Shown here: piece by piece, positions 11,361 to 44,075 of the stretch | How positions within the stretch are numbered: the first letter of the stretch is position 1 | How the letters are laid out: every line of letters starts with the position of its first letter | IMG/VR virus record: IMGVR_UViG_3300045988_177034 | Source: a virus | DNA length: 64,000 nucleotides | Reading direction: 5' to 3' (one strand) | Translations under genes and position numbers: made by a program | Notes under the pieces: model-generated | What the model saw: the letters and a program-made list of their open reading frames with translations, nothing else | What the model was told of the DNA's origin: nothing | Database searches by the model: none

Positions 11361-12332
11361 TTAGAAAATCTGGTCAAGCTTTGCGCATACAATAAAACGA
11401 GTATCGTAATTATCACTGCCGGAACAGGTGGACAAAATCAAGACCTTATCATTCAATCCAACTTCTGTGGCGTACTGATTGTAAGAGTAAGCTTTCATAC
11501 TTGCAATCTCTGTCAGGAAATACGAATCATCCGGATTCGCAATGGTATAACTTGGGTCAATAGGATAATCGGCAACAGCAAAGATTTTCCATCGTGTCTG
11601 CTGTTCACCCAAGGTAAGATAAATATACCGATGTTCCTTTGCAAAGTTGACATCGCGAAAGTATTTCAAAACACTGAATTTCTTGTGCATACTATTTCCG
11701 TTGCTATGTCCAAAAATAACAGTTACTCTGTACATATCGTCAACATTGCTGACATTCCATTCGGAGGGAACAAAATAAGCGCCCCAGATGCTTTCCCTAT
11801 CGAACTCATTGTGAGTCAGGTAATAATCATCGTCTGTGGGATGCTGCAAAATGGGCTCATCTGTAACATCAACGCCGGGAACGGTTAAGTAACCAACGGT
11901 GTTTTTGGAATACGCTGGCTTTGGTGTCGGTTCCGGTTCTGAATCACTCTCACTTGAATTAGAAGACGGGATAAGAATCGAGGGAGTAGAAACAGGTTCT
12001 TCTACATCATCGGAGATGTTTCCTGTCTCATATGCAGGGATATGATAGTAATCATACGCTTTCCATCCAATATAGCCAATCATGGCAATAAGAACGATGC
12101 AGATTACGACCAACAAAACTGTCCAGATGGAAAATCGCCGTTTCTCTTTGTCCTCTGACGCGTCCATCGCATCCATCGATTCATTGTCATCCTCGTCATG
12201 ACTTGCCTTTTGATGAGGGAAGTTTTCACCAGTTCCATCATCCTCATCATTTGGAATGTAATTGTACGCACCAAGTTCCTGCTCGAAATGTTCTTCTTCA
12301 GGCAGCGGTGGAATAATAGGTGTTTTTGCCAT
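11361..12332 (-). CDS. sortase-family transpeptidase (class B-like), 323 aa, with N-terminal membrane anchor
   Basis: catalytic motifs VIFGHS (His), LILSTCS (TLxTC-type Cys) and downstream Arg (YDTRFIV); one N-terminal transmembrane helix after an acidic cytoplasmic stretch; AAGGTGA ribosome-binding site; 12 nt after the upstream gene. Confidence 0.8.
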   Translation of the reverse strand: MAKTPIIPPLPEEEHFEQELGAYNYIPNDEDDGTGENFPHQKASHDEDDNESMDAMDASEDKEKRRFSIWTVLLVVICIVLIAMIGYIGWKAYDYYHIPAYETGNISDDVEEPVSTPSILIPSSNSSESDSEPEPTPKPAYSKNTVGYLTVPGVDVTDEPILQHPTDDDYYLTHNEFDRESIWGAYFVPSEWNVSNVDDMYRVTVIFGHSNGNSMHKKFSVLKYFRDVNFAKEHRYIYLTLGEQQTRWKIFAVADYPIDPSYTIANPDDSYFLTEIASMKAYSYNQYATEVGLNDKVLILSTCSGSDNYDTRFIVCAKLDQIF

Positions 12333-12343
12333 AATACATCACC

Positions 12344-13507
12344 TTATTCAGCTGCGGCAGACCGCTCGTACACATCAATGCAGTAGTTGCCCATAATCTT
12401 GTTGTACATGCACTCCTGTGCCAAAGGACCTGCCCCATAGGTATCAACGGCGTTATCGTAGTTACTGCCAATATAAGCTTTCACTTCATCGACAGACGGT
12501 TTATAGTCCTGTTCCTCTGCCAGATACTGCGCAACAAGGCTCAGTAAAACATTTTCTTCCGTCTGACTACGAAGACTTTCTGAATACTCCTCCGAGGTCT
12601 TATAATTGCTGTATGTCTGAACGAATGTCTCCAAGTCCATATTGTAGGCAGTTGCTTCGTTTTCGACATACTTCAAGTTGGTTTCAAGACTCAGGTTGAC
12701 AAGGTCTGTCGTATCCTTTTTGAGTTTTACATTATCAATGAAATACTGTTCAATCTCATTCTGAATCTTATTCATCCGAAGATTCTCTTCAACATATTCA
12801 CGAAGCAGAGCTACTGTGGTTACAGCAGTGCCGTCTTGCAGCTTGTAGCCACTCATGATACCGGCGACATCAGCATCTGTCATGCTATATTGAGAAATTT
12901 TATTAAGCGTTACATGGAAAACAGCTTCCTTGTTGGCGAGTTCGATAGTCTGCTCTCCTGTAGTTCTATCTGTTGTACTGCTATATCCATCAGGGAATGT
13001 TACCGTAACATCAAACGAATCCCCCGTGTTATGCCCGACGATTTGCTCTTCAAATCCGTCAATAAAGGTATTGGAACCGAGTTCCAAATCGTAGTCTTCT
13101 GTTGCTCCACCGGTAAAAGCAACACCATCAACCGTACCCTCATAGTCAATGTTCACAACATCGCCTTCCTGTGCGGCGCGGTCTGTTACCTCTGTCGTCA
13201 GCTTGTAATTGGACTGAAAATAATCCAACTCGCTTTGAATCTCCTCGTCTGTAACGGCGTATACATCTTTGCTGACCGTATACTTCTTATAATCCTTGGG
13301 CATCTTTATGTATTTGGACGCAGTCACATCACGAAAATACCCATCATCATCAAGACCGAGGTCATACTCAACAGCGGAAGCTGTTTCGGAGGTGGCTGTT
13401 TCCGCAGTCTCAGATGCACTTGTATCGGCCATATCTTTACTGCACGCGGTCAATGCAATACATGCAGCACTGATGACTGCCAAAATCACTTTTCCATTTT
13501 TTTTCAT
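12344..13507 (-). CDS. lipoprotein with trigger-factor/FKBP-type peptidyl-prolyl isomerase domain (387 aa)
   Basis: lipoprotein signal peptide MKKNGKVILAVISAACIALTAC; segment DVVNIDYEGTVDGVAFTGGATEDYDLELGSNTFIDGFEEQIVG matches the trigger-factor prolyl isomerase consensus; AAGGAG ribosome-binding site. Confidence 0.7.
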   Translation of the reverse strand: MKKNGKVILAVISAACIALTACSKDMADTSASETAETATSETASAVEYDLGLDDDGYFRDVTASKYIKMPKDYKKYTVSKDVYAVTDEEIQSELDYFQSNYKLTTEVTDRAAQEGDVVNIDYEGTVDGVAFTGGATEDYDLELGSNTFIDGFEEQIVGHNTGDSFDVTVTFPDGYSSTTDRTTGEQTIELANKEAVFHVTLNKISQYSMTDADVAGIMSGYKLQDGTAVTTVALLREYVEENLRMNKIQNEIEQYFIDNVKLKKDTTDLVNLSLETNLKYVENEATAYNMDLETFVQTYSNYKTSEEYSESLRSQTEENVLLSLVAQYLAEEQDYKPSVDEVKAYIGSNYDNAVDTYGAGPLAQECMYNKIMGNYCIDVYERSAAAE

Positions 13508-13565
13508 GAAAGAAACTCCTTTATAAAAAGACCCCGGCAGACAGGTTGCCTACCGGGGCAGTATT

Positions 13566-13817
13566 TTAAACGAACAGGAACGGAACGTGAAGTAACAGAG
13601 CGTATGCCGCATCCATAATGCCAATAATAACGGCGGATACAGCACTCACAGCAAGAACTGCTCCGGTTCGACGGAGCGTGTTGTGCATACTCGGCCAAGT
13701 CACATTTTTGGGTGCAACCAAATTGTGCAGCTTCTTAGGCGTGCTCTTGACGAAAGAAGGAATTGCCTTCACGAAATTCGCAATAGCCGTTCCTACCTTT
13801 TTCAGTTTATCTTTCAT
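13566..13817 (-). CDS. secE: SecE-like protein (83 aa; start MKDKLKK)
   Basis: segment KNVTWPSMHNTLRRTGAVLAVSAVSAVIIGIMDAAY fits the SecE core (K-V-x-WP ... transmembrane helix ... D); GGAGG ribosome-binding site; ATGA overlap with the upstream gene. Confidence 0.5.
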   Translation of the reverse strand: MKDKLKKVGTAIANFVKAIPSFVKSTPKKLHNLVAPKNVTWPSMHNTLRRTGAVLAVSAVSAVIIGIMDAAYALLLHVPFLFV

Positions 13818-14068
13818 GCCGCACCTCCTACTCCGGTTACTACGAACATGATGATTGCGATAACAAGCAGAATAGCTGTACATACAGCAACCAGTTTATT
13901 TGCGGACGTTTTCGTGCTGTCTTTAGCACTCGAGCGCATTGTATCACTGATTCCGGTGATAACACTAAGACTGTTCTTGTCAGCCTTATCCATGGAAAGC
14001 GTAACCGCACAAACCAGAACAGAAACCAGCAGAATCAAGATGCACAGAATGATTTCATAAATTGCCAT
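13814..14068 (-). CDS. secG: SecG-like small membrane protein (84 aa; two transmembrane helices flanking a polar loop)
   Basis: topology and size match SecG/Asp5-like proteins; loop LSVITGISD loosely resembles the SecG glycine loop; assigned mainly because it sits between SecY and SecE. Confidence 0.4.
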   Translation of the reverse strand: MAIYEIILCILILLVSVLVCAVTLSMDKADKNSLSVITGISDTMRSSAKDSTKTSANKLVAVCTAILLVIAIIMFVVTGVGGAA

Positions 14069-14083
14069 TGTGTTGCCCTCCCG

Positions 14084-15424
14084 TCAATTCAAGAAACCCT
14101 TGTGATGGCGAACCACCAAATGGCTGTTAAGAGAATCGATAACTTCAAGCGTAACACCTGTGACAATCAACAGACTGGTACCGCCAAAGTGCATGTTCAG
14201 ACCTGTAACCGCAGTTGCCAAGATAGGCACACATGCAATAACCGAAAGAACAAATGCTCCCGAACCGGCGAGAGAATGGCAAGCATTGCGCAGATAATCA
14301 CTGGTAGCTTTGCCTGCTCGAATACCGGGGATACTGCCGCCGTTCTTGCGCAGGTTGTTTGCCATTTCGATGGGGTCGAATGTGATGTCGATGTAGAATA
14401 AGTTGAATGCGAAAATCAGGGCTACATACGCAACATCATAAATCCAATTCCGCGAATTCCAAGATGCCAGCGCCATATACAGGCTGGGGTGCTTGTTGTA
14501 ATCGAGGAACATCGTCACGAGAGACGGCATACTGCAAATGGTGGACGAGAAAATAATAGGCATAACACCCGACATAATCAGTTTGATGGGGATATAACTG
14601 GACTGACCAGTGGATGCTTTGTTCCCTACATTTTTACCGGCATACTGAACAGGAACGCGGCGCTCTGCATCGCTTGCGAAAACGACATAGAAGGTGGCCG
14701 CCAAAACAAAGAGGATGACGCCGGGAATCATCAGATAATACCACCATCCATTTTCTTTGCCCATTGCAATAGAGTTCTGGAACAACGAGATGACAGCATC
14801 CCATCTGGAAATGATACCGGTAAAGATGATAAGGGAAATACCGTTGCCAATACCTTTTTCGTCAATCAGCCATCCAAGCCAGATGACGATTTGAGAACCA
14901 GCAGTCAGAATGGCAATAACAGTAATGGCTTCCACGACCTGCGAAATGCCGGAAGTGTATTTCATCGCACCGTAGTTCTTCATAATAAAGAAGTACCCGA
15001 TAGCTGTTACGACCGCCAAACCACAACCAACATACTGCGTGATTTTATTGATTTGCTTCTGCCCGCCGATGTCCTTGCTGATTTCTTCCAGTTTCGGAAT
15101 CGCAACAGTCAAAAGCTGGATGATGATGCTTGCGTTGATGTATGCAGATACGCCAATCGCAAATACCGCACACTGAGAAAGTGCGCCACCGGAAACCAGA
15201 TTGTAATAATCCAGTACAGAGGTGCTTCCGAACATAGTCTGAAGCGCAGCGGTGTTTACGAACGGAATCGTAATACCGCAACCCAGACGATAAATCAGAA
15301 GACAAAGGATGGTGAAGAGAATCTTGTTGCGAACATCATCCACCATCAGCTTCTGAAAGATGGTGCTGTTCGAATAAGACTTTTTGAGTTTCGGCTTTTT
15401 CGCCGGATTTTTAATGTTGTCCAA
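14084..15424 (-). CDS. secY: SecY-family translocon subunit, accessory or second copy (446 aa; TTG start)
   Basis: strong SecY motifs: GGALSQ, GIGNGISLIIF, RVPVQYAGK, YIPIKL, IPGIRAGK, GGTSLLIVTGVTLEVIDSLNSHLVVRHHKGF; not in a ribosomal-protein operon context; AAGGAG ribosome-binding site 6 nt before TTG. Confidence 0.9.
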   Translation of the reverse strand: MDNIKNPAKKPKLKKSYSNSTIFQKLMVDDVRNKILFTILCLLIYRLGCGITIPFVNTAALQTMFGSTSVLDYYNLVSGGALSQCAVFAIGVSAYINASIIIQLLTVAIPKLEEISKDIGGQKQINKITQYVGCGLAVVTAIGYFFIMKNYGAMKYTSGISQVVEAITVIAILTAGSQIVIWLGWLIDEKGIGNGISLIIFTGIISRWDAVISLFQNSIAMGKENGWWYYLMIPGVILFVLAATFYVVFASDAERRVPVQYAGKNVGNKASTGQSSYIPIKLIMSGVMPIIFSSTICSMPSLVTMFLDYNKHPSLYMALASWNSRNWIYDVAYVALIFAFNLFYIDITFDPIEMANNLRKNGGSIPGIRAGKATSDYLRNACHSLAGSGAFVLSVIACVPILATAVTGLNMHFGGTSLLIVTGVTLEVIDSLNSHLVVRHHKGFLN

Positions 15425-17782: not shown

Positions 17783-19207
17783 TCAATATTCTGCCACGAT
17801 GTTATCATCGGGTTTCTTCTTTATCAAAGAGTCCCCGAATCGATTTACATGTTCTTTCGGCGGTTCAATGACCTCGATATCGGTATCCTCCACCTTTTCG
17901 ATTTCGTCAGAGGAATCGTCATCTTTTTCGTTCTGAACCTTATCCGATGGATTGGTGATTTGTGCATCCTCTTTTGCAACATCTGAAAGCAAATCAAATG
18001 TCAACTGAGAATTTGAGGACGCTGGTTTCTTTTCTCTTTTCTTGGTTGTTTGGCGTTTTTTGGAAGTTCTTTTTGACTTTACAGGTTCATTGGAACCACC
18101 ATCGCTTGTTTTTGCACTTGCTGTATTTGAATCAGCAACCGCATCCGCTGAAGCCTTATCCTTGTTTGTTTCTGTGACGGGTTCCTGAACCTTTTTGTTT
18201 TTTGATAAATCATCTTTGTCGGATTGTTTTGATTCCAAAGCAGAAGACTCTTGTGCGTTTGAGCCTTGCTCTTCTTGCACTACAGATTCTTCCTTTACTG
18301 GAACCTTGGCAGTTCCCTTCTGCAAAAGGCCATCGATTGCTACAACGGCCTCAGACTTCTTTTCTTCGGACTCCGCCTTCTGTACTGCACGGCGAATCGC
18401 CTCGGTTTTTTCTTTCTTTTCTTTTTCTGCTGATGCGGTATTTTCGTTTTCCTTTATCTCAGCAGGCACATTCATGTCAGATTTCGAATTCCACCACTTT
18501 TCAATAGTAGTAATCGTTCTTTCTACTAATATTATACCACAAAATTTGTGGTTTGACAACTTGCGGCTCGGTACAAAGCATACAATGCCGCACAGAGAAA
18601 CAACCAGTAAAACAATAGCAAGTCCTGCATCAAAAATAAAACAGATAAACGACACCGGAATCAGCAGCTCGCAGATACCGCGCATGATAAATACTGTTTT
18701 ATCTCCTTGGTCTTTTCGGTTTTGCATAAAACTGTCTCTCCCCTTCTGCGGGTGATAAGACAAACCACTTGACAAGCCGTTTGTTGCCCAATCACAAGGT
18801 ATCTCGTAAGTCTTTTCTCCTAAGCTGTCTGTGTACTGAATTACAGCAATATCAAAATACTCACCATTCTTCTGTGATGCCAAGAATGCACGTAAGAATT
18901 CATTTCCAACAGACCGCGCAGGAACAATAATCGTTTCGATGCCGTCAGAATCTTTTGCGGCGATATCTACTACATAGGTATCATCTTCACCGCGCCATAC
19001 GTTCTGCACAATACCGCGCACCAATATACCGCGCTTATGAACACGCCTTCCCATAAAAGTAAAGGAGTTTTCAGAATACCACGTGTTTACCATGCAATAC
19101 GCAGCAATAATAAGCAATGTAAGGTACTTAACATTTATGGTGATAATGCTTAAAGAAAAAATATACGGAACGAGCATCAGCAAGACGAATGATACAAAGC
19201 TATTCAC
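17783..19207 (-). CDS. membrane protein (474 aa): transmembrane helix - soluble domain - transmembrane helix, then a long K/E/S-rich tail
   Basis: ORF track; hydrophobic segments at residues 5-40 and 175-215; contains an in-frame copy of the family-2 promoter at 18531-18559. Confidence 0.6.
18531..18559 (-). promoter_or_regulatory. family-2 promoter copy embedded inside the coding sequence of ORF 17783..19207
   Basis: minus-strand read gTTGTCAaaccacaaattttgtggTATAATattagt with the full TGTGGTATAATAT core; an in-frame ATG (MNVPAEIK) follows at 18475. Confidence 0.4.
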
Positions 19208-19887
19208 TTTGAATCACCGCCTTCGCCAAATCCGTCCAAAAAGACAAGATTTTCTTTTGTGTGTTTCTTTTTTTGTTCAATAACTTCTTTTTCAGCTTCT
19301 TGTTTGACTTTATCGTACGCTTCCAACGGACTCATAGAAGGTACTGATTTCTGCGTATCAGCAGGGACGATAGTATCATCGTTTTTGACGGCTGTCGTTA
19401 CACGACTGCAGGTTACGAGATTTCTGTCATTAAACGCAGTTACGCCATCCTCATTTGATTTAAAAATAAAGTCATACATAGCACCAACGAAGAAAGAGTT
19501 TTTAACGTTTTTCTTTGATTCGTTGACGCTGAGGAAAAAATCGTATTTTCCGTTTTTGTCGATAAACTCTCCATCCTCATTGACAGGGATGATTCGATAG
19601 GTTGAAATCTGCTGGCGAATCATATTTTTGCTGGACTCATCGGATACAACAATTCCCTTAACAGTCTTATACCGTTCATTTTTTTCATCATTATGAATCT
19701 CATAAATTTGAAAAATAAAATAAGCGGCGCACATCAAGCCGATGAGAAGAATCTTCCACTCCTGCATTACAACAACACCGAAAATAGAAGCAATCAAGAA
19801 CAGAATAGCGATAAGCCCATTCTTCACATACATAGATGTGATAAGAGATTTGCAATCCGGATGATAAATCTTAGACATTTTATTCAC
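19204..19887 (-). CDS. membrane protein (227 aa; 2 N-terminal transmembrane helices plus a soluble domain)
   Basis: ORF track; overlaps neighbours by 4-8 nt, suggesting coupling. Confidence 0.6.
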
Positions 19888-22893: not shown

Positions 22894-22919
22894 AAATCGC
22901 TCCCCCTAATGTACAGTAA

Positions 22920-22948
22920 TTGACTTTTTCGCGTTTTTGTGGTATTAT
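22920..22948 (+). promoter_or_regulatory. family-2-type promoter on the plus strand: TTGACT - 17 nt ending TGTGG - TATTAT
   Basis: plus-strand read aaTTGACTttttcgcgtttttgtggTATTATataag, 100 nt upstream of the only sizeable plus-strand gene (23048). Confidence 0.55.
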
Positions 22949-23047
22949 ATAAGTGCAGTAAAGGTATAATTTATATTACCGGTTACAAAGATTGTTGTTT
23001 TCGGTAATTATATAAACTTGTCTGTTAAACCAAGCAGGAGGGAAATT

Positions 23048-23710
23048 ATGAGTAACAATATCAACAACAACCACGAATCGGTAGAGAATATCTTCAATGC
23101 TTTCTTGATGGGAGGCAAAATGAACACTGCTTCCAAGCAAGAACGGGCAAAAATTGTAGATACCTTTATGGAACAGGCAAAATCTTGCTTTGTTGACACG
23201 GAGAATACCGTGAAATATCTGAATGTTCTGATGGAACGGACGAGACTCCGTTATGGGTTTACCGCTGATGAATTTGCAGCAATGTTGGGATACAGCAGCA
23301 CTGCCGCTTACAACAAGACATTCATGCAACCAAATGCAAATTTTGGAACTGTAGTATTTCCTTATGTGGTTCAGTTTTGCTATCTGTTTGGCTATAATCT
23401 GTCAATTCCTGATTCCGTGTCTGCTCCGCAAACAGTGGCAGACCTATACTCTTTGGAACTGGCTTCTTTTCTGATTTCTCTTGGCCCCGATGCAATGGAT
23501 GATATTTCAAGAACATTGGTCGGTGCCGAATATCTTGACCCGAATTTAAGAAAAACAAGTTCTCAAATACTTTCAAAGGCAAAGAAATACTTCTATGGTA
23601 ATGATGGTGAAGCGTTACCCAATGAAGTTCAGTACCGCAACAGATTAGATAACGCTGAGAATAAGATTAAGCGTCTCGATAAAATAGAGAAAGCCAATCA
23701 CGACAAATGA
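23048..23710 (+). CDS. putative DNA-binding regulator (220 aa) with helix-turn-helix-like segment
   Basis: AGGAGGG ribosome-binding site 6 nt upstream of ATG 23048; GFTADEFAAMLGYSSTAAYNK resembles a helix-turn-helix; transcribed divergently from the main gene direction. Confidence 0.65.
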   Translation: MSNNINNNHESVENIFNAFLMGGKMNTASKQERAKIVDTFMEQAKSCFVDTENTVKYLNVLMERTRLRYGFTADEFAAMLGYSSTAAYNKTFMQPNANFGTVVFPYVVQFCYLFGYNLSIPDSVSAPQTVADLYSLELASFLISLGPDAMDDISRTLVGAEYLDPNLRKTSSQILSKAKKYFYGNDGEALPNEVQYRNRLDNAENKIKRLDKIEKANHDK

Positions 23711-24175
23711 TTAGCCGCCAAACATATCGGCTAACTGTAATGCAAGCATCGCTTCTTCTGAAATAGGAGGCGGTGCTTCTTCTGTTTTGGGAGTTGTGTT
23801 GATGGTTTGTGTGTCTGTAATGTTTTGGGGGGAGTCATTTGAAGCTGGCGCAGCTACCGCAATCCCGTTTTTCTGAATGCTGCTTGTCACTGCATCTACA
23901 ATCTGAGGAATACAGCTTCTGATTTCTTCTGCTATTGTGTTTTGCAGTTCCTCTTTTAAGACGGACTGCGCTTCTTGCATCTCATGTTGTTTTGTAGCCT
24001 TGTCGATTATAGCATTTACAACCGCATCAGTTTTTCCGCCGCGTTGCAAACTGTTCAGATAATCATATACAAGTACATGATTGTCTTTGCTTAAATCAAA
24101 AACAAGTGTGGTTCGTACCGTCGTGCCAACGGTTTCTTTTTCTGCTTCATTCTTTTTGGGACGTCCACGCGGCAT
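23711..24175 (-). CDS. ParR-like DNA-binding adaptor with AT-hook (PRGRPKK), 154 aa
   Basis: lies immediately downstream of the ParM-like gene; N-terminal AT-hook; partition-adaptor role inferred from position. Confidence 0.5.
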   Translation of the reverse strand: MPRGRPKKNEAEKETVGTTVRTTLVFDLSKDNHVLVYDYLNSLQRGGKTDAVVNAIIDKATKQHEMQEAQSVLKEELQNTIAEEIRSCIPQIVDAVTSSIQKNGIAVAAPASNDSPQNITDTQTINTTPKTEEAPPPISEEAMLALQLADMFGG

Positions 24176-24208
24176 TCAGTGCTCACCACGCTTTCAAAAA
24201 CGGTGCTC

Positions 24209-25168
24209 TTAAATTTCACCGCTCATGGTCAGCTTTGCACGAGCCATGATTTCATATCCTTTTGCATTTGCGGTTACATCCGTCAAGAAGAAAAGGTTCT
24301 TGGTGTCAATGGCTCGCTCGATGCTTTCGCGCATCATAGCAGAACCACCGCCCATAAAGATGAAATAGGATGTTTTGAAGTCGTCCTTGATTTTTTCGGA
24401 AATCGTACGAATCAATGCTGTTGCATAATTGTCTGCGGTTTCCTTGGCAATTTTCACGGCGTTTTCATCGACCAGCATGTTGTTGTTCCCTGCAAGGATT
24501 GCCTCAGCCATGTAGTCATCGACCGACAAGGAACAATGGACACGCAGCTCGCTCTCGACAGTGCTCAGGAGTTCAATGACTCCACGGTCATAGCTTTCGC
24601 AGAAAGAAAGGTCCGGAGCATAAGTGTTGCCACGACCAGAGAAACGAATCACATCCGTTGTATACCCGCCGATGTCTACAACATAAGAACGGGGATAGCG
24701 CTTGATTTCCTTCTGAATCTCGCCTGCTGCCGTAATAGAAAAGCCCTGAGGATAGACAAAGACATGCTTGACAGTAATCTCGAACGGGATATCTTTGTAC
24801 ATGAAATTGATGAGTTTCCCGTTTTTGCCGAAATACTCATCATACTTCGCTTTCAGGGACATATGCTGCGGGGGCAAGCCCATCGCGAGGCATACATCGT
24901 ATTTGTAGAATTTCTGATTGGGATACTTCTTTATGAGGTTCTTTGCTACGGCAATCAGCGTCAGCAAAAAGTAAGTGTCATCCTTCGTCTTATCCTGCTG
25001 ATAAGGCGTACGGCTGTCATTGAGGGAATAATACTTCCCCATGTAGCACATCGTCTCTCCCTTGATAGCCGGTTCAGTCGTACCATGACGAACAAGACCA
25101 GTGGGAAACGGCTCACAGCCAGGCGTCTTCATTGCCTTGTTTCCGGTATCTACTCCAATAATCTCCAT
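24209..25168 (-). CDS. parM: ParM/StbA-family actin-like segregation ATPase (319 aa; start MEIIGVDTGN)
   Basis: actin-fold phosphate motifs IGVDTGN and VVDIGGYTTDV, adenosine motif FMGGGSAMM; GGAGG ribosome-binding site 7 nt upstream of ATG 25168. Confidence 0.8.
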   Translation of the reverse strand: MEIIGVDTGNKAMKTPGCEPFPTGLVRHGTTEPAIKGETMCYMGKYYSLNDSRTPYQQDKTKDDTYFLLTLIAVAKNLIKKYPNQKFYKYDVCLAMGLPPQHMSLKAKYDEYFGKNGKLINFMYKDIPFEITVKHVFVYPQGFSITAAGEIQKEIKRYPRSYVVDIGGYTTDVIRFSGRGNTYAPDLSFCESYDRGVIELLSTVESELRVHCSLSVDDYMAEAILAGNNNMLVDENAVKIAKETADNYATALIRTISEKIKDDFKTSYFIFMGGGSAMMRESIERAIDTKNLFFLTDVTANAKGYEIMARAKLTMSGEI

Positions 25169-25333
25169 AAAAAATCCTCCGAACGAGTCGCAATATAGTT
25201 GAAAGTACGAATTTTGGGATACTCTGCGTGATAAAATATAAGTGTCTACCAGATAACAATGGGACTCACTGACTGATGTATAGCGGTTGTTAAAACGGAA
25301 AGAACAACTAATATACAACTATCTGTTGTTATC

Positions 25334-25362
25334 ATGATACCACACATGCAGTTGTCCAGCAA
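25334..25362 (-). promoter_or_regulatory. candidate parM promoter (family-2-like variant: TTGCTG - 17 nt ending TGTGTGG - TATCAT); ACAAC/GTTGT iterons downstream
   Basis: minus-strand read cgTTGCTGgacaactgcatgtgtggTATCATgataACAACagataGTTGTatattaGTTGTTc. Confidence 0.35.
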
Positions 25363-25406
25363 CGAACTTTTGTTCGCATAGACAACAAAAAAGAAAGGAG
25401 TTATTT

Positions 25407-25637
25407 ATGCCATCCACCTTTGATACCATGGTAGGAAAGCGAATCAAAAAGCAACGAATGGAAATCAATTACAGCCAAGAACAGTTGGCGGCAAGCACGA
25501 ATTGTTCCTATCGCTGCATCCAAAAATGGGAGTCAGGAAAGACGATGCCGCGAGCGCAGATGCTATGTAATTTAGCAAAAGCCTTACATGTTTCGTCTGA
25601 CTGGCTGCTGGGTATTTCCAATGACAGGAACGGTTAA
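25407..25637 (+). CDS. XRE-family helix-turn-helix transcriptional regulator (76 aa)
   Basis: AAGGAG ribosome-binding site; classic XRE helix-turn-helix (YSQEQLAASTNCSYRCIQKWESGKTMP); inverted repeat TTGTT-N8-AACAA at about 25370-25388 upstream, a likely operator. Confidence 0.85.
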   Translation: MPSTFDTMVGKRIKKQRMEINYSQEQLAASTNCSYRCIQKWESGKTMPRAQMLCNLAKALHVSSDWLLGISNDRNG

Positions 25638-26983
25638 TCGTTTACCGGGAAAACCAGCGTCTTAGCGATTGTCTCGGCAAGGTCCTGAAACTCGCTCTCA
25701 ACGTGCTCCGGGATAAAACCGATAGCAGCTTCCCTCTTCAAAACGTCGATAGCCTTCGTAAACTGAGAACGGGTGTACGAATACCCCCAACGAAGACCAT
25801 CGGCGTTTTGCTGTAGAATTTCGCAAAGCGGGTCCAGCACAACAAACATGATTTCCTTCACGTTGTTTTCCGTGCAGATACGCATAGCCTCGATAGCTCC
25901 GGCAAAGCCGTACTCCCATTCATCGCTCGTGTGTCCACACATACCGTGGATGATTCGCTTATCTCCCATATCTACCACGATACCGTAAGCGCCTTCACGC
26001 GTCTCGTCGTTGTAAACGCAAGTGAGGAATACATTCGTACGGAATGCATTCGAAGCCTTCATGGCGGAATCATATTTTGAACCACGGTCGCTCTTCATCG
26101 GAACAATGCCGGTAATAGAAAGCTTGTCTGTCTTAGGCTTCTCCATCTGCATACCGGACTGTCCACGAGCCATGATTGCACTATTCCCTTTCTGAGGAGA
26201 TTCTGTGCGCTGTGCAGGCTGTGAAACAGGCTTCTGAACGGGTTTCGCCTCTGACTTCATTTCCGGCGCAGAAACCGTCTTATCCGTCACGGGCTTTTTA
26301 TCCTTAACCGGAATGACAGGAGGCTTGGGCTGTTCCGAAATCTGTTCGGAAACAGAAGGCTTTGCAATCACCGGAGCAACCTTCTTCTGTTCCGGTTCGG
26401 CATCTTTCGGCCCTTGTTCGTTTTCTTCCGTTTTGTTCAGAACCGTTTCAAAAACATGGAGCGCTTCCTTCGTTTTAGACTCGGTAGCCTCATTCTTGGA
26501 TTCGTCCTTTACAGGAAGAGATTCTTCTTTTACGGGTTCATCCTTTGTTGCAGGCTTGACGACGGGATTTGATTGCGGTTTCGGCTCTTTCTTAGCGGTG
26601 ACACCGAAAAGATTTGCGAGACGTTCTTCCTCTTTCTTCTTCCTTTCAGCTTCCTGCTTCTTGCGTTCTTCCGCAAGCTTACGTTCCTGCTCTGCCTTTT
26701 CGGCTTCTTCCTTTTCAATTTGCTTGCGCATCTTTGCGCGGCGAGCCTCCTCAATGCGCTTTGCTTCTTCTTCTTCTTTCTTTTTCTTTTCGAGATACTC
26801 AGAGTGAATCGGACGAGATGTCGTGGGAGCTGCCTGCAGAGGCTTCTTTGCTTCCACCTGTTCCCCCTTATTCTCCTCCTTCTTGAGTTTTTCCTTTTCT
26901 GCGGCATCAACTTTGCGCTGTGTCATATTGTTGAACAGCTTATTCAACGCCTCAGACTCGGCGATATAAGACTCCTTACTCAT
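25634..26983 (-). CDS. protein with a long K/E/A-rich low-complexity N-terminal region and an RNase H-like C-terminal domain (449 aa)
   Basis: C-terminal segment VFLTCVYNDETREGAYGIVVD...DEWEYGFAGAIEAMRI...VVLDPL...EHVESEFQDLAETIA fits an RNase H-like D-E-D pattern. Confidence 0.65.
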   Translation of the reverse strand: MSKESYIAESEALNKLFNNMTQRKVDAAEKEKLKKEENKGEQVEAKKPLQAAPTTSRPIHSEYLEKKKKEEEEAKRIEEARRAKMRKQIEKEEAEKAEQERKLAEERKKQEAERKKKEEERLANLFGVTAKKEPKPQSNPVVKPATKDEPVKEESLPVKDESKNEATESKTKEALHVFETVLNKTEENEQGPKDAEPEQKKVAPVIAKPSVSEQISEQPKPPVIPVKDKKPVTDKTVSAPEMKSEAKPVQKPVSQPAQRTESPQKGNSAIMARGQSGMQMEKPKTDKLSITGIVPMKSDRGSKYDSAMKASNAFRTNVFLTCVYNDETREGAYGIVVDMGDKRIIHGMCGHTSDEWEYGFAGAIEAMRICTENNVKEIMFVVLDPLCEILQQNADGLRWGYSYTRSQFTKAIDVLKREAAIGFIPEHVESEFQDLAETIAKTLVFPVND

Positions 26984-28646
26984 TACCGGTTGCCTCCTTT
27001 TTCGTGATGAGTGTATAGATTAACTCCTCTGTAAGAGGAATAGATGTAACATTGGGCAGATGCTCGAATCGAATACCACGAGCCTTACAAATCTGCTTCG
27101 CCTTTCCGTACAAAGAATGACTCATCTGTGTAACACGGAAAATAACAATGTCACTGTTTGCGATAAGCGCATCGCAGGTAGCCAGATTACACTGGTCAAC
27201 ATACGAGATGTCCGGCTGTGCATTACGAAGCATGTTGACAAAGTTCTGCTGTCCACCGCAGAAAACAATTTTCTTGTTCTTTGCCATCTGATTCAGCTCT
27301 TTATGATAGTCTATGACTTCTGTTTCCTGTTCACAGATACCTGCATCGGAATCATCAAAGTCATCAAACTCGGAAGTTTCTGGCCGAAGCTGAATGAGCT
27401 TTCGCTCTGCGTTCGCCAACAGCTTTTCCAGTTCATGGATTCTACTCTCGGCATCATCGTTCTTTTTGCGCAAAGCCGTTTCTCGTTTCATGGATGTGGC
27501 CTTGAAATCGTAAAGTTCTTTTTTGACCTTTTCCAGTTTGGCGTTTGTGCTTGCCTCAGCCACTTCCTTTTTGACTTCGGAAGCTTTTTGCTTTAGCTGC
27601 TCCTCGTATTTTTTGTTTTCGAGTTCGCGTTTTCTCAGCTTTCTCTGGTTATAGATTGTAGTGCTCTTTTCGAGAATCGCATTCTTTTGCTGCTTTTCTC
27701 CAAAAGAAGAAACAACATATTGCCAGACAAGAGCAATATAAGCATCACGAATTCCTCTGTCGATAGACGCTCTATGTACCATCTTTCTCGGGTCTACTGT
27801 GCAGCTCATTGCCATAATTGCGCAAATTCGCTCTTTCATTTTCTCCGTGATAGGGAACTTATAAAGCGAATGATGATTGACACCGATACTGGTGGAAATC
27901 CGGAAAGAGCTCATACACATATCGATACGCGGACGACTGGACATATTTAACGGAGGCGCTGGAGCAACGCCATTCTTGACGGCTTGCGTAAAGAAATCAG
28001 CCATTTCCGGCATATCCCAGCTGTTACAGTCACTGTCGTATCGCAGCGCATAAATCATATCGCCGAGTGTGGCGACATCCCAGATATCGGACACTGCTTC
28101 TTTCACAAAGGCCATCATCGCTTCCGTGCCGCTGTCAGAGAAGGAGTTATCGAAATCTTTGACGATTTTCCTGATACTGTCTCCGTCCTTCACGGATGCT
28201 GCCTGAAAAATGTCCAATGCAGCCTTAAATCCACGCGTAATGGTTCTCTTACTCAAATCATTCTCGTGGAACATCTTTTCGAATAGCTTATCCGATTCGC
28301 CGTCGATTTTCTTTACAATCTGGTACAGCGTGGGATTCGTCTTATCGGCTTTGATGACCAGATACGAAAGAATATCAAGTGCCGTATCTGTCAATCCATC
28401 ATTCCCTGCAAGAATGATGGTAAGGTCATTTTCGCCTTTAAGGATTTTCCTTTTCATCTTCTGGCAATCGTTGTCTGACTGAGCCAGTTCAATGATTTCC
28501 TTCCTCAAAGGGAAGCACTCGATTAGAAAAGCAATCCGCTGATACACAAAATCAACGGTGCTGATTTTAAATTCTCGCGGGAAATCCCTGATTTCAGCAA
28601 TATCATCAGGAATCACAAAGCCGTTAATCACATTCTGTGTAACCAA
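26976..28646 (-). CDS. hypothetical protein (556 aa) with a central coiled coil
   Basis: ORF track; 8-nt overlap with the downstream gene; no confident motif. Confidence 0.65.
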   Translation of the reverse strand: MVTQNVINGFVIPDDIAEIRDFPREFKISTVDFVYQRIAFLIECFPLRKEIIELAQSDNDCQKMKRKILKGENDLTIILAGNDGLTDTALDILSYLVIKADKTNPTLYQIVKKIDGESDKLFEKMFHENDLSKRTITRGFKAALDIFQAASVKDGDSIRKIVKDFDNSFSDSGTEAMMAFVKEAVSDIWDVATLGDMIYALRYDSDCNSWDMPEMADFFTQAVKNGVAPAPPLNMSSRPRIDMCMSSFRISTSIGVNHHSLYKFPITEKMKERICAIMAMSCTVDPRKMVHRASIDRGIRDAYIALVWQYVVSSFGEKQQKNAILEKSTTIYNQRKLRKRELENKKYEEQLKQKASEVKKEVAEASTNAKLEKVKKELYDFKATSMKRETALRKKNDDAESRIHELEKLLANAERKLIQLRPETSEFDDFDDSDAGICEQETEVIDYHKELNQMAKNKKIVFCGGQQNFVNMLRNAQPDISYVDQCNLATCDALIANSDIVIFRVTQMSHSLYGKAKQICKARGIRFEHLPNVTSIPLTEELIYTLITKKEATGNE

Positions 28647-35987: not shown

Positions 35988-38900
35988 TTACTGCTTCTTT
36001 TCCTCGGTTTTATCTTCGGTCTTTTCAGCAGCTTTTTCTTCGCTATCGCCCTTCTTCTTCTTAACGATGACAAATGCGCCAACGCCAATCAGAGCAACAA
36101 CAACGATAACAGGAACGATGATGTCTGCGCCAAAACCAACGCCAGTCTTGTAGTTAACTACAACAGGTGCCGGAGTGGGAGCAGGTTCATTCTTGACTAC
36201 AGGAGTCGGAGTCGGTCTGCTTTCTTCCGGAGGATTCTCCAGCTTAACGCTTGCTACCCGGACATCGCCGTAGTTGCCTGCCTTATCAACTGTACGGGTC
36301 ACAATGTAACCAGTCCAATCGGGGCTCAGCTTGAAGGTAACGTAACCGTTGTCCTTATCAATGTTTGTAACATTGACAGTCTCGAACTTGGTTTCGTCGA
36401 AGGTGTAATCGCCATCAGCACTCTTGGCAATAGCAGAACCATTGACCTTGTAATACTGAATCTTAGCGACACCGGAGTTGTATTCGCCATCAAGAGCGGA
36501 GATAGCAGGAACGGAATCCTTGACCTTTACAACAGGCACGAAGTCGGGGTCTTCGGTATCATCCTTGCCACCGTTTTCGTCGGGAGTAGCAACGACATCG
36601 TTACCGTTTTCATCACCGGTCTCGTCGCCGGTTGTGAAGAGAGCGGGCTTACCATGAGCAATACGAAGCGTAGTGGCTTCGGTCTTGTCATCGGTTGTTT
36701 CGGTCTTCTCGGACTCGCTGGGAACTTTCTCCTCGGTACCGGATTCGGTTTCATCCTTCTTGTCGGAATCTTCCTTCTTATCGGTATCGTCCTTCTTGTC
36801 GTCTTCCTTCTCAGGTGCCTTGCCGGTCTCTTCACCAGTAATGAACACATTGATGGTGCTCTCGAACTTGACGAACTTCTCGTTCAGCAAATCGGTCTTA
36901 TTGGTGGAATCAACCTTATCGGCAGCGAAAGCAGAAGCAACGACAGGAGCTTCGGTATCAACAGATGTGGTGATAGTTCCCATCTCGGTAATGGCACCTG
37001 TCTTCAGGTCAATCAGGTAATAGGTAGAAGTAACCTTCTCACTATTAGCGGAAATGACCATCTTCTCGGCCCACTCAGCATCGGTCAGGGAATCGCTGGT
37101 TCCGATTGCGTAACCCTTAGGAGCGATAACTTCAACCTTAGAGTTGAAGTACAGGCCACTCAGGTCATCAGTCGTCTTCTTGGTAACCTCAACAGGCTTA
37201 CCGGTCTTTTCGTCAGCCACAGTACCAACGATAGTTGCGGGCTCTACATCGGCAAGATGCAGACGCTGAACTTCGAGGTCTCCGGTGGTAGGCAGGTAAT
37301 TGTAGTTGTCGTAAGCGCCGCCAACATACTTGAAAGCGTCCTTCGTCAAGCCAACATTACCGAAGATACCATCGATGCTGGAAGCAACAATGAGTTCGAA
37401 GGAAGGCAGCTTAACGGTTTCAGCAGTCTCGTCGAAAGCGTAACCACTGGTCTTGATTTCGGGAATTTCCGTCTTGGTGCCATACAGCTTGACGACGGGG
37501 TTCGGGTCGAGAGTAACCGTCAGGTCTTTGCGAGCGATAACGAACTGACCATCGGCTTGGTTCTTATCGGCATCAACGACATTGATTGTTACTGCGTAAT
37601 TCTGCTCAACAGCAGCATCGTAATCAGAGGTAACGGTGTAGGTGTAAGTACCAGCGTTCTTGACATTCTCAGTCTTGAACTGGCTGTCGCTCTCCACGCC
37701 GTCATCGCCGCTTGCGATGTCAGGAGTCAGAGTCGCCTTTGCATCAGCAGTCAAGGGAGCAGTCTGTGCATTGTCGGTGGTCTTGTCATTCTCGAAAGGA
37801 GTATAAACAAGTGCCATCTTCAGGCCCAGAGAATCAGGTTTGACAGCTGCACCGTGTGTACCGTCGCCATTGGTGGCAACAGCATTTACGGTGAAGTCGG
37901 GGTTAGTGGTATCGCCATAGACGATATCCTTGGGCTCGGTGACAGTGACTTCGACCAGACGTTCGCCAATGGTATAAACGCCATTAACAATCGTAATCAG
38001 GTAATCGTCATTGTCGTAAGAACCGACCATGTCGTATGCACCGTAATTCTTGACAGATTCGGGCACGCTCTCCGCAACCAGAGAAGCAGCACCGTCAGCA
38101 GACTTCATGGAAATCTCTTCGGCAACCGCATTCTCAACATCCTTCTGAGTGATGCTGATAATAGCTTTCAGGTCATCGCCATTTACGATGGTCTTCTTAT
38201 CGGCATCGCCAGTATAGGTAAGAGTATTGCTCAGTTCAGCCATTTTATTGCCGTAGACAGAACCAACAGTGCCGATGGTCCAAGTCAGAGGACGCTGAGT
38301 GACCGTGTAAGTGCCGTTCATAGCAGTTACCAGATAATCCTGATAAGAAGCCTGACCGACGCGGTGAGCCAGACCGGAGAAGGAAGGAACAATGTCATAG
38401 CCTCCGACATGGCTTGCAGAAGTGACGAGGCACAGGTTCGTGCCTTCCAGAATATCACCATTGACCAGAGCTGCTTTGGCAGTGTCACCAGTGTATTCCA
38501 GAACGTTCACGGTACCGTAATCAGACCAATCTTCAACAGCAACATCGTCGCCATAGATAGAAGTCTGGGGTTTAGCGGTGACAGTGATGGGACGCTTGTC
38601 GATAACAAAATCAACGGGAGCGTAAACAAAGGTGTAGTTGTTTGCTGCGGCATTCTCAACATTTGCAGGAACGACCTTGCCGGTACCAGCGTGAGAAGCT
38701 ACCGTTGCGGGAGCTCCCTCAGCATCGGTAAAGTTGAAGGTCAGGTTTGCAATGCCCAGGACACCAGCATCATCGGGAGTGGTGTTGCCCTTGACGGGTT
38801 TCACAACGAATCCATCGAAAATCAGGTCGTCGCCGGAGAGAACAGGGTTCTCATCGCCGTAAATCTTGCTCTGAGCTGCCAGAGTGACATTCAGAGTAGC

Positions 38901-41900
38901 AGGAGTGATTTCGAAGGTGTTGTTTACGCGGGTGATGTTGAAGTTGACATCGTCGCCCTCGATAATCATCGGGTGCTTGCCGACATCCTCACCAGCATCG
39001 GTGCCAGCGTCAGGACGAACAACCTTCAGGTTTGCAAGGTCACCTGCATCTTCGCTTACATAGTAAGCGCCGTCGCCAGTTGCAGTCCAAGTCAGTTCGG
39101 GGTCAGCCTCGCCGTAGACCTTCTTCTGGCCTTCGTCAACAACCACGATTACATCGCGCTTATCGACATGCAGAGAACCATCAACAAAGACGATGGGGTC
39201 ATAGTTCTTTGCGCCCTTGTTTTCCAGACCGCTCATGGTGATGACATAATCGCCAGCAGCAGGACGAGCAGGAATCTCGGACAGAGAACCGTCAGCATTC
39301 TTGATGTTGTAGACAACCGAGCCAGTGAATGCGGAAGCAACGGTGTCATTGTTCTTCAGGCCAGTAACGGTGTAGCTGAACGTGGGAACGGTGCCGCCAT
39401 AAATCATGGAGTAACCGCCAGCCACGGTAAAGGTGACCTTAACGGGCTTGATGGTCAGAGTAGCAACTTCCATAGCTTCGGGCTCGGTGGTGGAAGAACC
39501 AACGTCGACGGAAGTGCCGGAGCCAGTCACGATGGTGATGGTGTAGTTACCGTACTTGTTGTACAGAGTAGAGCTGATGGGGTATTCACCGACATCCTCA
39601 CCGGCTTTGCGAGTAACAGAGCCGCTCAGAGCACCAGTAGTCAGTTCCAGCGTATTCTTCTTCAGACCATCGTTGGAAATGTTGCCGGAAATCTCGCTGT
39701 AAGAGAATGCGGGGTCTGCATCGCCGTAATCCTTCTCGTAGTTGGAGAAAGTCAGGGTGATGGGACGAGGAGTGATGGTGAGGGTAGAATCAATCACCGT
39801 CAGGTCGTAGTTGGCAGGCTGTGCGTAGATAGCTTTCAGAGCATAAGTGCCAACGCTTGCGGAAGCAGAAGTTGCACCGGAAGTCAGGGTAATGCCCTTA
39901 AGAATCTTTTCGGCTTCTGCTGCCTGAACATCAGTAGTAGTCAGCAGACCAGTGCCGCCCTTGATGTAATCCTTCACGTTCATAGAAGTGAGGGTCTCAC
40001 CATAGGTCTTTTCGGTTTCGAGCAGGTTGATAACGGCAGTACGCTTATTGATGGTGAAGCGAACATCATTGGTGAAGCTGATACGATAGTTCTTTGCCAT
40101 CGTCTGCTCATAGATGTTACCGCTGTAAATCGGATAAGTGCCAGCGTTCTCGCCTGCTTCACGGCTCAGACGAGCCTGTGCGAAGTCGGCCTTGGGTTCT
40201 GCGAAGCTGGTGGTGTTGTAGTCGAAGATGACATAAGTATCATTGACTGCAAAGCTGGGGTCAGTCTCGCCGTAAGTCTTGGACAGGCCATAGCGAGGAG
40301 TGATGGTCAGGGGCATCTGATGAACAATCAGCATGTTCTTGCCATCGGGCTCAGACAGCTTAACGCTGTTTGCAGGCTGGTTATCCAGACGGAAGGTCAG
40401 GTTGTAAGAACCTGCATCGTACAGACCAGAAGCGTTCGCAGTAGCCTCAACGGCGATACGAACAACGCCCAGAGAAACATCCTTGCCGTCCATCTTGATG
40501 TTGACGGTTTCGCCATCGTGGTAAATCTGAGTGCCATCGGAGGTGTTCACATTGACGGAAACTTCCTTGGCGATGGTATCGGGCTTCTTCTCGCCGTAGG
40601 TAGTCTGCAGAGCGTTGAAGGTGACAGAGACATCAGCCTCGGTGACTTGGAACGTGGCCTGCGGAGCAATCGTTACGATGTAGTTGGGGTTCTCATCATA
40701 GGAGATGGTAGCCTCATAGTTGCCAACAACCGTGGTGGGGTCTTCCCACTTGGTCAGGTCGATGTGGATGTTCAGCGGGCTGCCCTGCGGGTCAACCACA
40801 TTGATAGCCTGAGAACCGGTCTCGTCATACAGCGCATAGCTGGGGGTGTTCTTACCGGCAACGCCGTACTTACGGACGCTGTTGGTAGTACCCTTGATGG
40901 TGACAGGCAGTGCATTGATAGTCAGTGTACCGCTTGTACCATCGCTGTAAGTACCGGTATAAACGATGTTGTAGTTGGGGTTGGTGTAACCGGAAACAAC
41001 GATAGGATAGGTACCGACACCAGTCAGCTTACCAACGGTATTATCAACGCCATACTTGATGGTGACAGTGCCGCCAAGAGAAGCGACGGTATCATGGATG
41101 CCGATTTCATCGTTGCTTGCAAAGTTCTTGTATTCCAGTGCGCCGGTAATGTCGGCATCGCTGGGATTTTCAGAACCATACAGACGCTCACGGTTCGGAA
41201 CGGTGATAGTCAGAGTACGCTTGGTGATAGTGTACTTATCGGGAGCATTGAAGGTGATGTCGTAGTTCTTGGCGATTTCAGCAGTCTGGAACTGTGCATC
41301 GCTGTAAGCGTAAGAACCAACGGTCTCGCCGACCTCACGGGTCACAACGCAGCCAGCAAAGTCGGAACCAACACGGCCGCCCTTGCCATTGACGGGGTCA
41401 AGAGTAAAGGCAACGCCGCCCTTGGCATCACTGTCGCCGTAAACCTTCGTTTGACCACCCATCACATTGATGGCGATAGGACGCTTGGTGACGGTCAGCT
41501 TGCTGTTGACAAAACGAACCAGATAGTTGTCGTAACGGTCGTAGTTCTTGCCATCGGCATTGGGGTCCCAGTCAGAAGACCAACGCTCCTGAGAAGCACC
41601 CTGCACAGATGCGCTGACGGTGTATTCGCCAACATTGGCAGTTGTAGGAGTGCCGCTGTTGCCAGCCGCATCCACCATGGTAAAGCCAAGCTTATCCTCG
41701 GTCAAACCGATGCTTGCCTGTGTATCGTTCAGCTTGAAACCTTCGATGGATTTAATCTTGCCGGAACGAGCAGCGCCATACATTGCGGACAGGTCATCGA
41801 GAGTGACAGTCAGCATTGCAGGATGGATGATGTACTTGCTGTTGATGACCTTAACGTCATAGTAAGCAGTGCATGCAGGGGGAACTTCGACAGTCATCGG

Positions 41901-43931: not shown

Positions 43932-44075
43932 GTTAGTTGCCCTCCTAATAATGTGAGTATTCTGTGGTTTTACCACAGCCGGATTTATATACACCCTTAC
44001 CTACTCCCTAGTGTGCAGCCTCGATTGTAGATAAGAAAGTATATCAAAACACAAGCAATCAAATTGCATATTTAC

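Follow-up and report, generated by a model that had tools for sequence, protein, structure and literature searches.

Hodor conjugative megaplasmids are circular elements of the human gut that exceed 300 kb (mean 356.8 kb, GC content ~45–47%) and encode Rep_3, ParA, ParB, ParM/StbA, a type IV secretion system (T4SS), VirB4/VirD4 and a MOBH-like relaxase, alongside SecY/SecG/SecE, trigger factor, sortase B, TnpB insertions and giant proteins of >7,300 aa and ~2,642 aa with MBG (YGX) domains (Yuan et al., bioRxiv Feb 2026, PMC12934698). According to the same preprint, these elements are misclassified as viral by geNomad and VirSorter2 and are distinct from phage-plasmids, their backbone lacks TerL except where a separate prophage has inserted, the class B sortase lies in the SecY/SecE/trigger-factor neighborhood, and G1/G2 membership is set at at least 90% nucleotide identity over at least 80% of the length; its main text names ParM/StbA among the marker genes and says nothing of ParR, a centromere, XRE or actin. 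In the pSK41 partition system, ParR binds as a dimer-of-dimers on 10-bp repeats, with one dimer per 10 bp, and autoregulates (PMC4911067). Here we analyze a stretch of 64,000 nucleotides from IMG/VR record IMGVR_UViG_3300045988_177034 (hereafter the window), in which a parM-like gene, a small parR-like adaptor gene directly downstream and a divergently transcribed XRE-family regulator gene lie together. The probable reading of this locus is a ParMRC-like (type II) partition cassette, carried by a circular, conjugative Hodor-type megaplasmid of ~355 kb that belongs to human-gut Bacillota.

The cassette resides on an extrachromosomal circular replicon of ~355 kb. Five independent assemblies from human-gut metagenomes yielded contigs of 352,028–355,450 bp with parM at different offsets and in different orientations, which on contigs of this size indicates circular permutation and hence a circular molecule. 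The extrachromosomal replication that a sequence-only reading of the window had deduced from its partition genes is thereby borne out. We rejected a chromosomal context on the grounds of contig size and circular permutation, and the neighboring genes for SecY, SecE and trigger factor are accessory copies borne by the plasmid rather than core genes of a chromosome. Megablast of 15–35 kb against PLSDB and INPHARED gave no match, and a scan of GTDB representative genomes with ParM found no close relative and so offers no clue to the host. In the metagenome collection, 1,748 blocks have an index entry for exactly this ParM protein.

Several features mark this replicon as a probable Hodor-type megaplasmid, which it matches in size, source, SecY/SecE and trigger-factor genes, giant proteins, TnpB and viral misclassification. 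The secretion module occupies 11361–15424 (− strand), with SecY at 14084–15424 (7e-87), SecE at 13566–13883 and a trigger-factor-like FKBP/Trigger_C protein at 12344–13507; sortase B and SecG were not identified among the open reading frames (ORFs) scanned. Two giant genes lie on the same strand: one at 35988–43994 encodes 2,668 aa with five MBG (YGX; MBG_2) stretches, and one at 44360–64000 encodes >6,542 aa with ~22 DUF11 and ~20 DUF7507 repeats, CARDB, DUF7619 and DUF7927 before running off the window end. Window GC content is ~0.42–0.52, and the element is filed in IMG/VR under “viral” contigs, the longest of 345,980 bp. Matched on its described features, the window's ParM is probably the same gene as the Hodor ParM/StbA.

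The motor gene encodes an actin-fold ATPase of the ParM type. Pfam matches to its product all exceed the cut-off (MreB-like_C of the Ta0583 type, 1.8e-12; ALP_N, 2.3e-7; Alp7A_like_C, 1.5e-5), PHROG 691 “partition protein” matches over the full length (3.5e-29), and the top PDB sequence matches are R1 ParM (1mwk, E 9e-4) followed by Clostridium botulinum ParM. By tblastn we found “ParM/StbA family protein” genes of ~31% identity on Vescimonas and Butyrivibrio plasmids, as well as matches in unannotated Subdoligranulum plasmid records. The motifs IGVDTGN, VVDIGGYTTDV and FMGGGSAMM, on which the sequence-only reading had based its call of a ParM/StbA-type actin-fold ATPase, are present in the translation and coincide with columns that do not vary among the 31 members of an alignment (D7, G9, D165-I-G-G at 165–168, T170 and G273-G-G275); these columns are the phosphate-1, phosphate-2 and adenosine motifs, so the nucleotide-binding motifs are intact. 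The AlphaFold2 model (pLDDT 92.2, pTM 0.88) retrieves Ta0583, R1, CorM, pSK41 and C. botulinum ParMs, pCBH, Alp12, Bt ParM and AlfA at Foldseek ranks 1–26 (E 1e-16 to 1e-9), with MreB and MamK first appearing at 3e-9, one PilM-containing entry aside. It matches Ta0583, R1, pSK41 and clostridial ParMs ~10^6-fold better than MreB. Because this ranking puts ParM-type actin-like proteins (ALPs) first, we rejected an MreB or FtsA identity; Pfam, PHROG and Foldseek agree, and both sequence and model support a member of the ParM/ALP family.

At L018/L019 6001–6924, a ParM-like protein of 35% identity (P0115) lies in a module resembling an integrative and conjugative element (ICE). This module also encodes DUF3991/Toprim, single-stranded DNA-binding protein (SSB), a DNA methylase and a tandem set of three tyrosine recombinases, and one copy of it is on a 355,056-bp contig.

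The gene pair is conserved well beyond the window. The parM start is the ATG at 25168, preceded by a GGAGG ribosome-binding site (RBS) at 25176–25180, and a gap of 33 nt separates the parM stop from the parR-like gene, which has its own GGTGA RBS. All lineages fetched keep the pair, even those in which ParM identity falls to 44%, and an adaptor-family gene stands directly 3′ of parM wherever context was fetched. A homolog search with the single adaptor sequence recovered only relatives of at least 87% identity, and nothing significant emerged from Pfam, PHROG or NCBIfam scans or from phmmer against PDB; the wider family was reached with a profile built from syntenic copies. This profile retrieves 132 proteins, all unannotated, and a full HMMER scan of 1.84 billion representatives gives 60 adaptor-family clusters (counted at 50% identity) at E ≤ 1e-3. 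Judged by these searches, the family is narrow, unnamed and previously unannotated.

Conservation and predicted structure of the adaptor both point to a ParR. The family shares an N-terminal block (R21-x-T-x-x-F26 ... (V/A)YDYL40 ... G46-x-K-T49 ... V53-x-A55), a variable Pro/Thr-rich linker in the middle and a conserved extreme C-terminus (A..AL146.LA149.MF152, or DDAF..VM.LFG in remote members), and at the sequence level this pattern is that of a ParR. The AlphaFold2 model (pLDDT 66) has an extended segment at 21–29, a helix at 31–42, a turn, a helix at 50–103, disorder at 104–139 and a helix at 140–152, a modeled topology that is that of a ribbon-helix-helix monomer with a long second helix and a tethered C-terminal helix. 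The strand K-R-L-T-I-R-F is one that we take to resemble those of CopG-type ribbon-helix-helix proteins. When the family profile was run against PDB, 2q2k_A (pSK41 ParR) ranked 4th-best (E 1.1), with VYDiLknlgyGkkTdaiVdAl aligned with IFDFLENVPRGTKTAHIREAL, the helix-turn-helix (HTH) part of the ribbon-helix-helix; 181 plasmid records, of which 179 are staphylococcal, carry the matched segment under the annotation “plasmid segregation protein ParR”. Pairwise hhalign gave P 2.8e-4 for the adaptor against pSK41-type ParR and P 1.9e-4 for its N-terminus against the protein encoded after ParM on Vescimonas pMM35_02. These signals are weak, yet they point in one specific direction, and we hold with good confidence that the 154-aa protein is a ParR-type ribbon-helix-helix adaptor. 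The earlier description, a small AT-hook protein in the ParR position, thus stands as to position and gains from the architecture and the weak ParR likeness, whereas its AT-hook part falls short: the protein begins MPRGRPKK, the Pfam AT_hook match is sub-threshold (E 0.089) with weak matches in 5/24 family members, and the N-terminal PRGRPKK is missing in two lineages.

The third gene is divergently transcribed, as had been proposed, and by its Pfam match (HTH_3, PF01381; 1.5e-13, 51 bits versus a cut-off of 23, residues 13–67) the 76-aa product is an HTH_3/XRE regulator with a predicted five-helix Cro/C1-type HTH domain. NCBIfam matches to RstR- and DicA-type repressors are below cut-off. The XRE gene is found in all clade A lineages and is missing from the sister clade B (L020 and L056).

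A fixed order of motifs, not overall similarity, characterizes the region between parM and the XRE gene. We compared seven lineages in which ParM is 69–80%, ParR 38–43% and XRE 37–52% identical to the window. Intergenic similarity to the window is 63–72% versus a shuffled-control mean of 65%, no better than chance. All 7/7 lineages share the order CGAA-N6-TTCG, an immediately following T(T/G)G −35, a 17-nt spacer, a TGnTATAAT-type extended −10, and ACAAC-N5-GTTGT. The extended −10 begins exactly 34 nt past the start of the CGAA palindrome in 7/7 lineages, and ACAAC-N5-GTTGT begins 5–10 nt past the −10. The ACAAC/GTTGT arms are identical in 9/9 copies from the seven lineages while the spacers all differ, and other lineages have a second palindrome, near-palindrome or half-site 4–36 bp downstream of the first. 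On the XRE strand, a second TGnTATAAT-like extended −10 lies 45–130 bp toward parM and passes the scan in 6/7 lineages; L011 has a near match, TGCTATATA, noted by eye. Should this element be real, the ACAAC sites would lie between two promoters, those of XRE and parM, that point toward each other. Both promoters are predictions drawn purely from consensus and conservation, with predicted transcription starts at ~25325 (−) for parM and ~25244 (+) for XRE. The ACAAC sites form a clear putative operator, made up, at the predicted parM start, of an invariant palindrome of 15 bp and one or two additional sites.

Within the window, pentamer density and polymorphism single out the same motifs (Table 1). 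The ACAAC/GTTGT pentamers previously remarked upstream of parM are there in six copies in 101 bp (25286–25386), versus 0.43 expected per 116 bp, and form the densest cluster in the window; this density is reached by 0.03% of sliding windows across the 64 kb, all in the same single cluster. ACAAC/GTTGT is also the most overrepresented intergenic pentamer (Poisson 3e-4, uncorrected for the number of pentamers examined). The palindrome that the sequence-only reading named as a candidate centromere-like site proved unique in the window and conserved, while its “iterons” are better described as one invariant palindrome with one or two further sites. Its TTGTT-N8-AACAA inverted repeat before the XRE gene does exist, but with a spacing of N9 (TTGTT 25370–25374, AACAA 25384–25388) and as a by-product of the CGAAC-TTTT-GTTCG palindrome. 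A consensus promoter scan returned a promoter-like site at 25358–25331 on the minus strand, and an Rfam search of the leader and intergenic region gave no match. Among 11 haplotypes of the window's lineage, 15 intergenic positions vary, 14 of them in the 125-bp motif region; only one falls within the 40 motif-arm bases (~4.5 expected), and it lies in a pentamer, with none in the CGAAC arms. Palindrome spacer positions 25321, 25322 and 25371 are polymorphic.

Table 1. Features of the parM–parR–XRE cassette in the 64-kb window and parts of the adaptor protein
Feature	Position	Strand	Basis or remark
parM-like gene, actin-fold (ALP) ATPase, 319 aa	24209–25168	−	ORF map plus Pfam, PHROG and fold
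parR-like adaptor gene, 154 aa	23711–24175	−	Position, conservation, AlphaFold2 topology, weak pSK41-type ParR likeness
Divergent XRE-family HTH regulator gene, 76 aa	25407–25637	+	Pfam HTH_3
parM–XRE intergenic control region, 238 bp	25169–25406		Conserved motif blocks
Weak terminator-like hairpin	23692–23716	−	Directly past parR-like stop codon
Predicted parM promoter	25331–25362	−	−35 TTGCTG (25362–25357), 17-nt spacer, TGTGG + TATCAT (−10 25339–25334)
Core palindrome ACAAC-N5-GTTGT, ACAACTATCTGTTGT (other strand ACAACAGATAGTTGT)	25315–25329		Over predicted parM transcription start; unique in window
Palindrome CGAAC-TTTT-GTTCG, conserved core CGAA-N6-TTCG	25363–25376		Abuts parM −35, centered ~−42.5; unique in window
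ACAAC pentamers	25304, 25315, 25382		25304–25308 lies 11 bp from core palindrome
Outermost ACAAC	25382–25386		Adjoins XRE RBS; bears sole within-lineage variant of any pentamer
GTTGT pentamers	25286–25290, 25325, 25351–25355		25351 inside parM −35/−10 spacer
Predicted extended −10 TGATAAAAT	25229–25237	+ (XRE strand)	Consensus only; faces parM promoter
Adaptor, AT-hook-like part	residues 2–8
Adaptor, ribbon-helix-helix-like part	residues ~19–66
Adaptor, disordered linker	residues 104–139
Adaptor, conserved C-terminal helix EEAMLALQLADMF	residues 140–152

A scan of IMG/VR with CGAACAAAAGTTCGTTG found six stretches, 3/6 on contigs of this element, and tblastn on the other three found no ParM, ParR or XRE relative. 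An IMG/VR scan for double ACAAC palindromes, made to see what protein accompanies them, gave for the most part tandem repeats within coding sequence and phage operators that are unrelated. On Butyrivibrio pCY186, GTTGT/ACAAC is contained in the arms of a perfect palindrome, GTTGTTCAC-G-GTGAACAAC, 5′ of the ParM gene (L059:1417–1435), possibly by coincidence.

By analogy with R1 and pSK41, parM and parR would form a two-gene operon expressed from the Gram-positive-type extended −10 promoter at ~25331–25362. ParM would polymerize, and the ParR-like protein would dimerize through its N-terminal ribbon-helix-helix and bind the ACAAC/GTTGT sites, ~10–11 bp apart, across the parM transcription start. 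Its conserved C-terminal helix would be offered to the ends of ParM filaments, whose growth would push sister plasmids apart, and ParR binding at the same sites would shut the parMR promoter. We infer ParM polymerization, ParR-site binding and plasmid stabilization by the cassette from this analogy. The XRE protein most likely binds CGAA-N6-TTCG near −42.5 of the parM promoter, a 14-bp site of Cro-type geometry on the XRE side, and would be transcribed from a promoter facing that of parM across the ACAAC sites. With an XRE site at the parM promoter and facing promoters, ParR and XRE would cross-regulate. As for the ACAAC sites themselves, we lean toward the ParR-like protein as their ligand; XRE is a clearly weaker candidate, and some other arrangement is improbable.

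Several observations weigh against a ParMRC-like centromere at this position. Clade B (ParM 44% identical) keeps parMR fused behind an upstream operon and has neither the XRE gene, the upstream intergenic region nor either palindrome, so an adjacent upstream centromere is not universal. Where the two palindromes occur, they occur with the XRE gene. One invariant palindrome with one or two extra sites per lineage is also few against the 8–10 repeats of pSK41 and R1 parC, and our positive-control scan of a pSK41-type parC did recover ~8 repeats at 10-bp spacing upstream of parM; a number this low suits a repressor operator better than a centromere. On the protein side, the adaptor's likeness to known ParRs is not significant database-wide (E 1.1), none of the Pfam ribbon-helix-helix models matches it, and a monomer AlphaFold2 model cannot show the β-ribbon. 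Finally, the plasmid is reported to have ParA and ParB as well (PMC12934698), so ParMR need not be its main partition system.

The most serious alternative, though one we regard only as possible, is that ACAAC-N5-GTTGT, and perhaps CGAA as well, are XRE operators through which XRE controls the parMR promoter, with the ParR centromere elsewhere on the plasmid. The classic geometry of HTH-dimer operators (434/P22-type, or the double boxes of controller proteins) is seen here in a transcription start that bears one or two palindromes of 15 bp, their half-sites spaced by one helical turn, in keeping with the restriction of both palindromes to XRE-containing lineages and with a count of sites far below that of the pSK41 parC control. 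The recognition helix of XRE, though, is variable (SYR, TVR, TAR, SDR) while the ACAAC arms are invariant, and the presence of two different conserved palindromes (AAC-N4-GTT and AAC-N5-GTT) beside two local DNA-binding proteins favors one site type for each. The absence of both palindromes from clade B also loses some of its force, as the β-strand residues of clade B ParR differ and another site would be expected anyway. Multicopy pentamers phased at ~10–11 bp, moreover, fit ribbon-helix-helix subsites as in pSK41 (PMC4911067).

A more elaborate arrangement seems to us a long shot. Here parMR, in place of simple autoregulation, would be wired into a conserved face-to-face promoter switch, its two promoters converging over the ACAAC operators and the second palindrome fixed at −42.5, by which XRE turns the segregation machinery on or off, for example with conjugation or stress, and clade B would have dispensed with the adjacent site. 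Were this so, ParR would act on a remote or unconventional centromere alongside ParABS.

Less probable again is that the ParM/ParR-like pair is an actin-based aid to DNA positioning, replication or transfer, comparable to AlpC/AlpA of the Corynebacterium prophage CGP3 or to ParM-like genes within Firmicutes ICE modules, with megaplasmid inheritance left to ParAB. Against this, large low-copy plasmids often have two partition systems. The nearest annotated relatives are plasmid ParM/StbA proteins of Clostridia, the pCY186 copy adjoins a replication initiator gene, and gene order and adaptor architecture are those of type II partition loci. What such a role has in its favor is that Hodors are reported with ParA and ParB (PMC12934698), that Toprim, SSB and methylase genes accompany the 35%-identical ParM-like protein in its ICE-type module, that clade B lacks an adjacent centromere-like site, and that, as far as the descriptions in PMC4446434 and PMC5539076 go, CGP3 employs an actin-like system plus adaptor for viral DNA replication. 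We retain partition as the probable function of the cassette.

The sequence-only reading had seen in the locus a plasmid or phage-plasmid hallmark; the plasmid half holds, and the phage-plasmid half probably does not, even though an XRE gene beside a par locus is typical of phage-plasmids. That the element is a huge phage or phage-plasmid, with the XRE/ParMR block as a lysogeny-maintenance module, is very unlikely despite its storage in IMG/VR as viral contigs and the PHROG families that match ParM and several neighboring genes, given that no capsid, portal, terminase or other virion genes were seen among the ORFs scanned in the 64-kb window, that a tRNA search of the window found none, and that Hodors lack TerL outside inserted prophages, have Rep_3 and a T4SS, and are misclassified as viral by geNomad and VirSorter2 (PMC12934698).

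Genes flanking the cassette are conserved along with it. Beyond the XRE gene, 25634–28646 (−) encodes two proteins. One, of 449 aa, has a conserved C-terminal domain behind a long N-terminal half of low complexity rich in Lys and Glu; the other, of 556 aa, matches DUF2325 weakly. Both genes are syntenic with parMR in all clade A lineages. The clade B counterpart of the 449-aa protein has 421–426 aa, and parM begins 2–18 nt after it. On the other side, a convergent gene at 23018–23710 (+), HTH-like by eye and without a Pfam match, has a stop codon that abuts the parR stop and is conserved in all lineages. In clade A, the intergenic stretch upstream of it (22894–23017) has a strong, conserved, near-consensus promoter for this gene, TTGACT-N17-TGTGGTATAAT. 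We rejected this stretch as an alternative parC for the window's lineage, as it is mainly promoter and has no iteron array. In clade B, the region beyond the convergent HTH gene (L020:10040–10510, L056:7120–7550) has an array of 4–7 ACTATAT(A/T)TTGTG-type palindromes around a TGTGGTATAAT promoter, which could be operators of the convergent regulator or the clade B centromere. Clade B also has a clear hairpin with a T-run just past the parR-like stop, in the same place as the weak hairpin of the window.

Other observations concern the wider window. Beside the secretion module, a 323-aa ORF (11361–12332) has no Pfam match. An IS605/TnpB gene (OrfB_IS605, Cas12f1-like_TNB) is present in L004, L005, L006 and L009 at ~18203–19306, equivalent to ~15.9–17.0 kb of the window and beside the zf_Tbcl gene; it is absent from the window and from other samples' copies, an insertion polymorphism. 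Very long opposite-strand ORFs are open across 36–64 kb, presumably as a result of repeat-rich, biased composition. The window also encodes Dam and a flotillin-like protein.

ParM on such megaplasmids has already been reported and this kind of system is known; the conceptual gain for type II partition is small. Our analysis adds the probable identity of the element, an unannotated ParR-like family, and a precisely conserved layout of promoter and operator elements in which there are two palindromes and the promoters are probably convergent. For an element that is very widespread, the locus offers a concrete candidate maintenance module, composed of a motor, an adaptor family and a control region of 100 bp with two defined palindromes. 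If functional, a fragment comprising parMR and the control region could stabilize shuttle vectors for gut Clostridia, and the cassette could be a handle for tagging or curing the megaplasmid. The SecY/SecE/trigger-factor genes and the PHROG matches show why such elements are mis-binned as virus or chromosome.

Known actin-based systems resemble this locus to different degrees. Likened by description, the AlpC/AlpA/alpS system of prophage CGP3 in Corynebacterium glutamicum likewise combines an actin-like protein, a DNA-binding adaptor and sites near the operon on a mobile element, whereas the role described for it is viral DNA replication and transport, not plasmid partition. The R1 ParMRC system shares an actin-fold ParM (Foldseek E ~1e-15), a downstream adaptor gene and sites on both sides of the promoter core; its adaptor's C-terminal peptide binds ParM, going by the title of PDB entry 4a62, and a corresponding ParM contact is predicted for the conserved C-terminal helix here. 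R1 differs in that its parC consists of ten 11-bp iterons, its ParR has no sequence similarity to our adaptor and it has no XRE partner.

The ParM/StbA systems of Clostridia plasmids (Vescimonas pMM35_02, Subdoligranulum, Butyrivibrio pCY186) hold the nearest annotated ParMs (~31% identity) and likewise have a small unannotated gene directly 3′ of parM and palindromes or tandem repeats 5′ of it. The downstream protein of Vescimonas pMM35_02 shares the N-terminal motif of the adaptor, while that of Butyrivibrio is not detectably related, and these plasmids have other repeat sequences and no divergent XRE gene.

The type II system ParMRC of the Staphylococcus conjugative plasmid pSK41 differs from the present locus in ParM sequences that are not detectably similar pairwise, in a parC of ~8 direct 10-bp repeats upstream of the promoter instead of 1–2 palindromes downstream of the −10, and in having no divergent XRE gene; the adaptor here is also longer, with a 50-residue helix and a Pro/Thr-rich linker. 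The order control region, parM, parR is the same, and a convergent gene lies right after parR in both, HTH-like here and an HTH regulator on pSK41-type plasmids (L060). pSK41 ParR and the adaptor share the motif (I/V)(F/Y)D(F/Y)L..(V/L).RG.KT...(I/V)..A in the N-terminal β-α-α part, which is predicted to bind DNA in the adaptor, and both have an acidic C-terminal tail. In both systems ~10-bp-phased repeats overlap the promoter, predicted in the window, an arrangement that would imply autoregulation.

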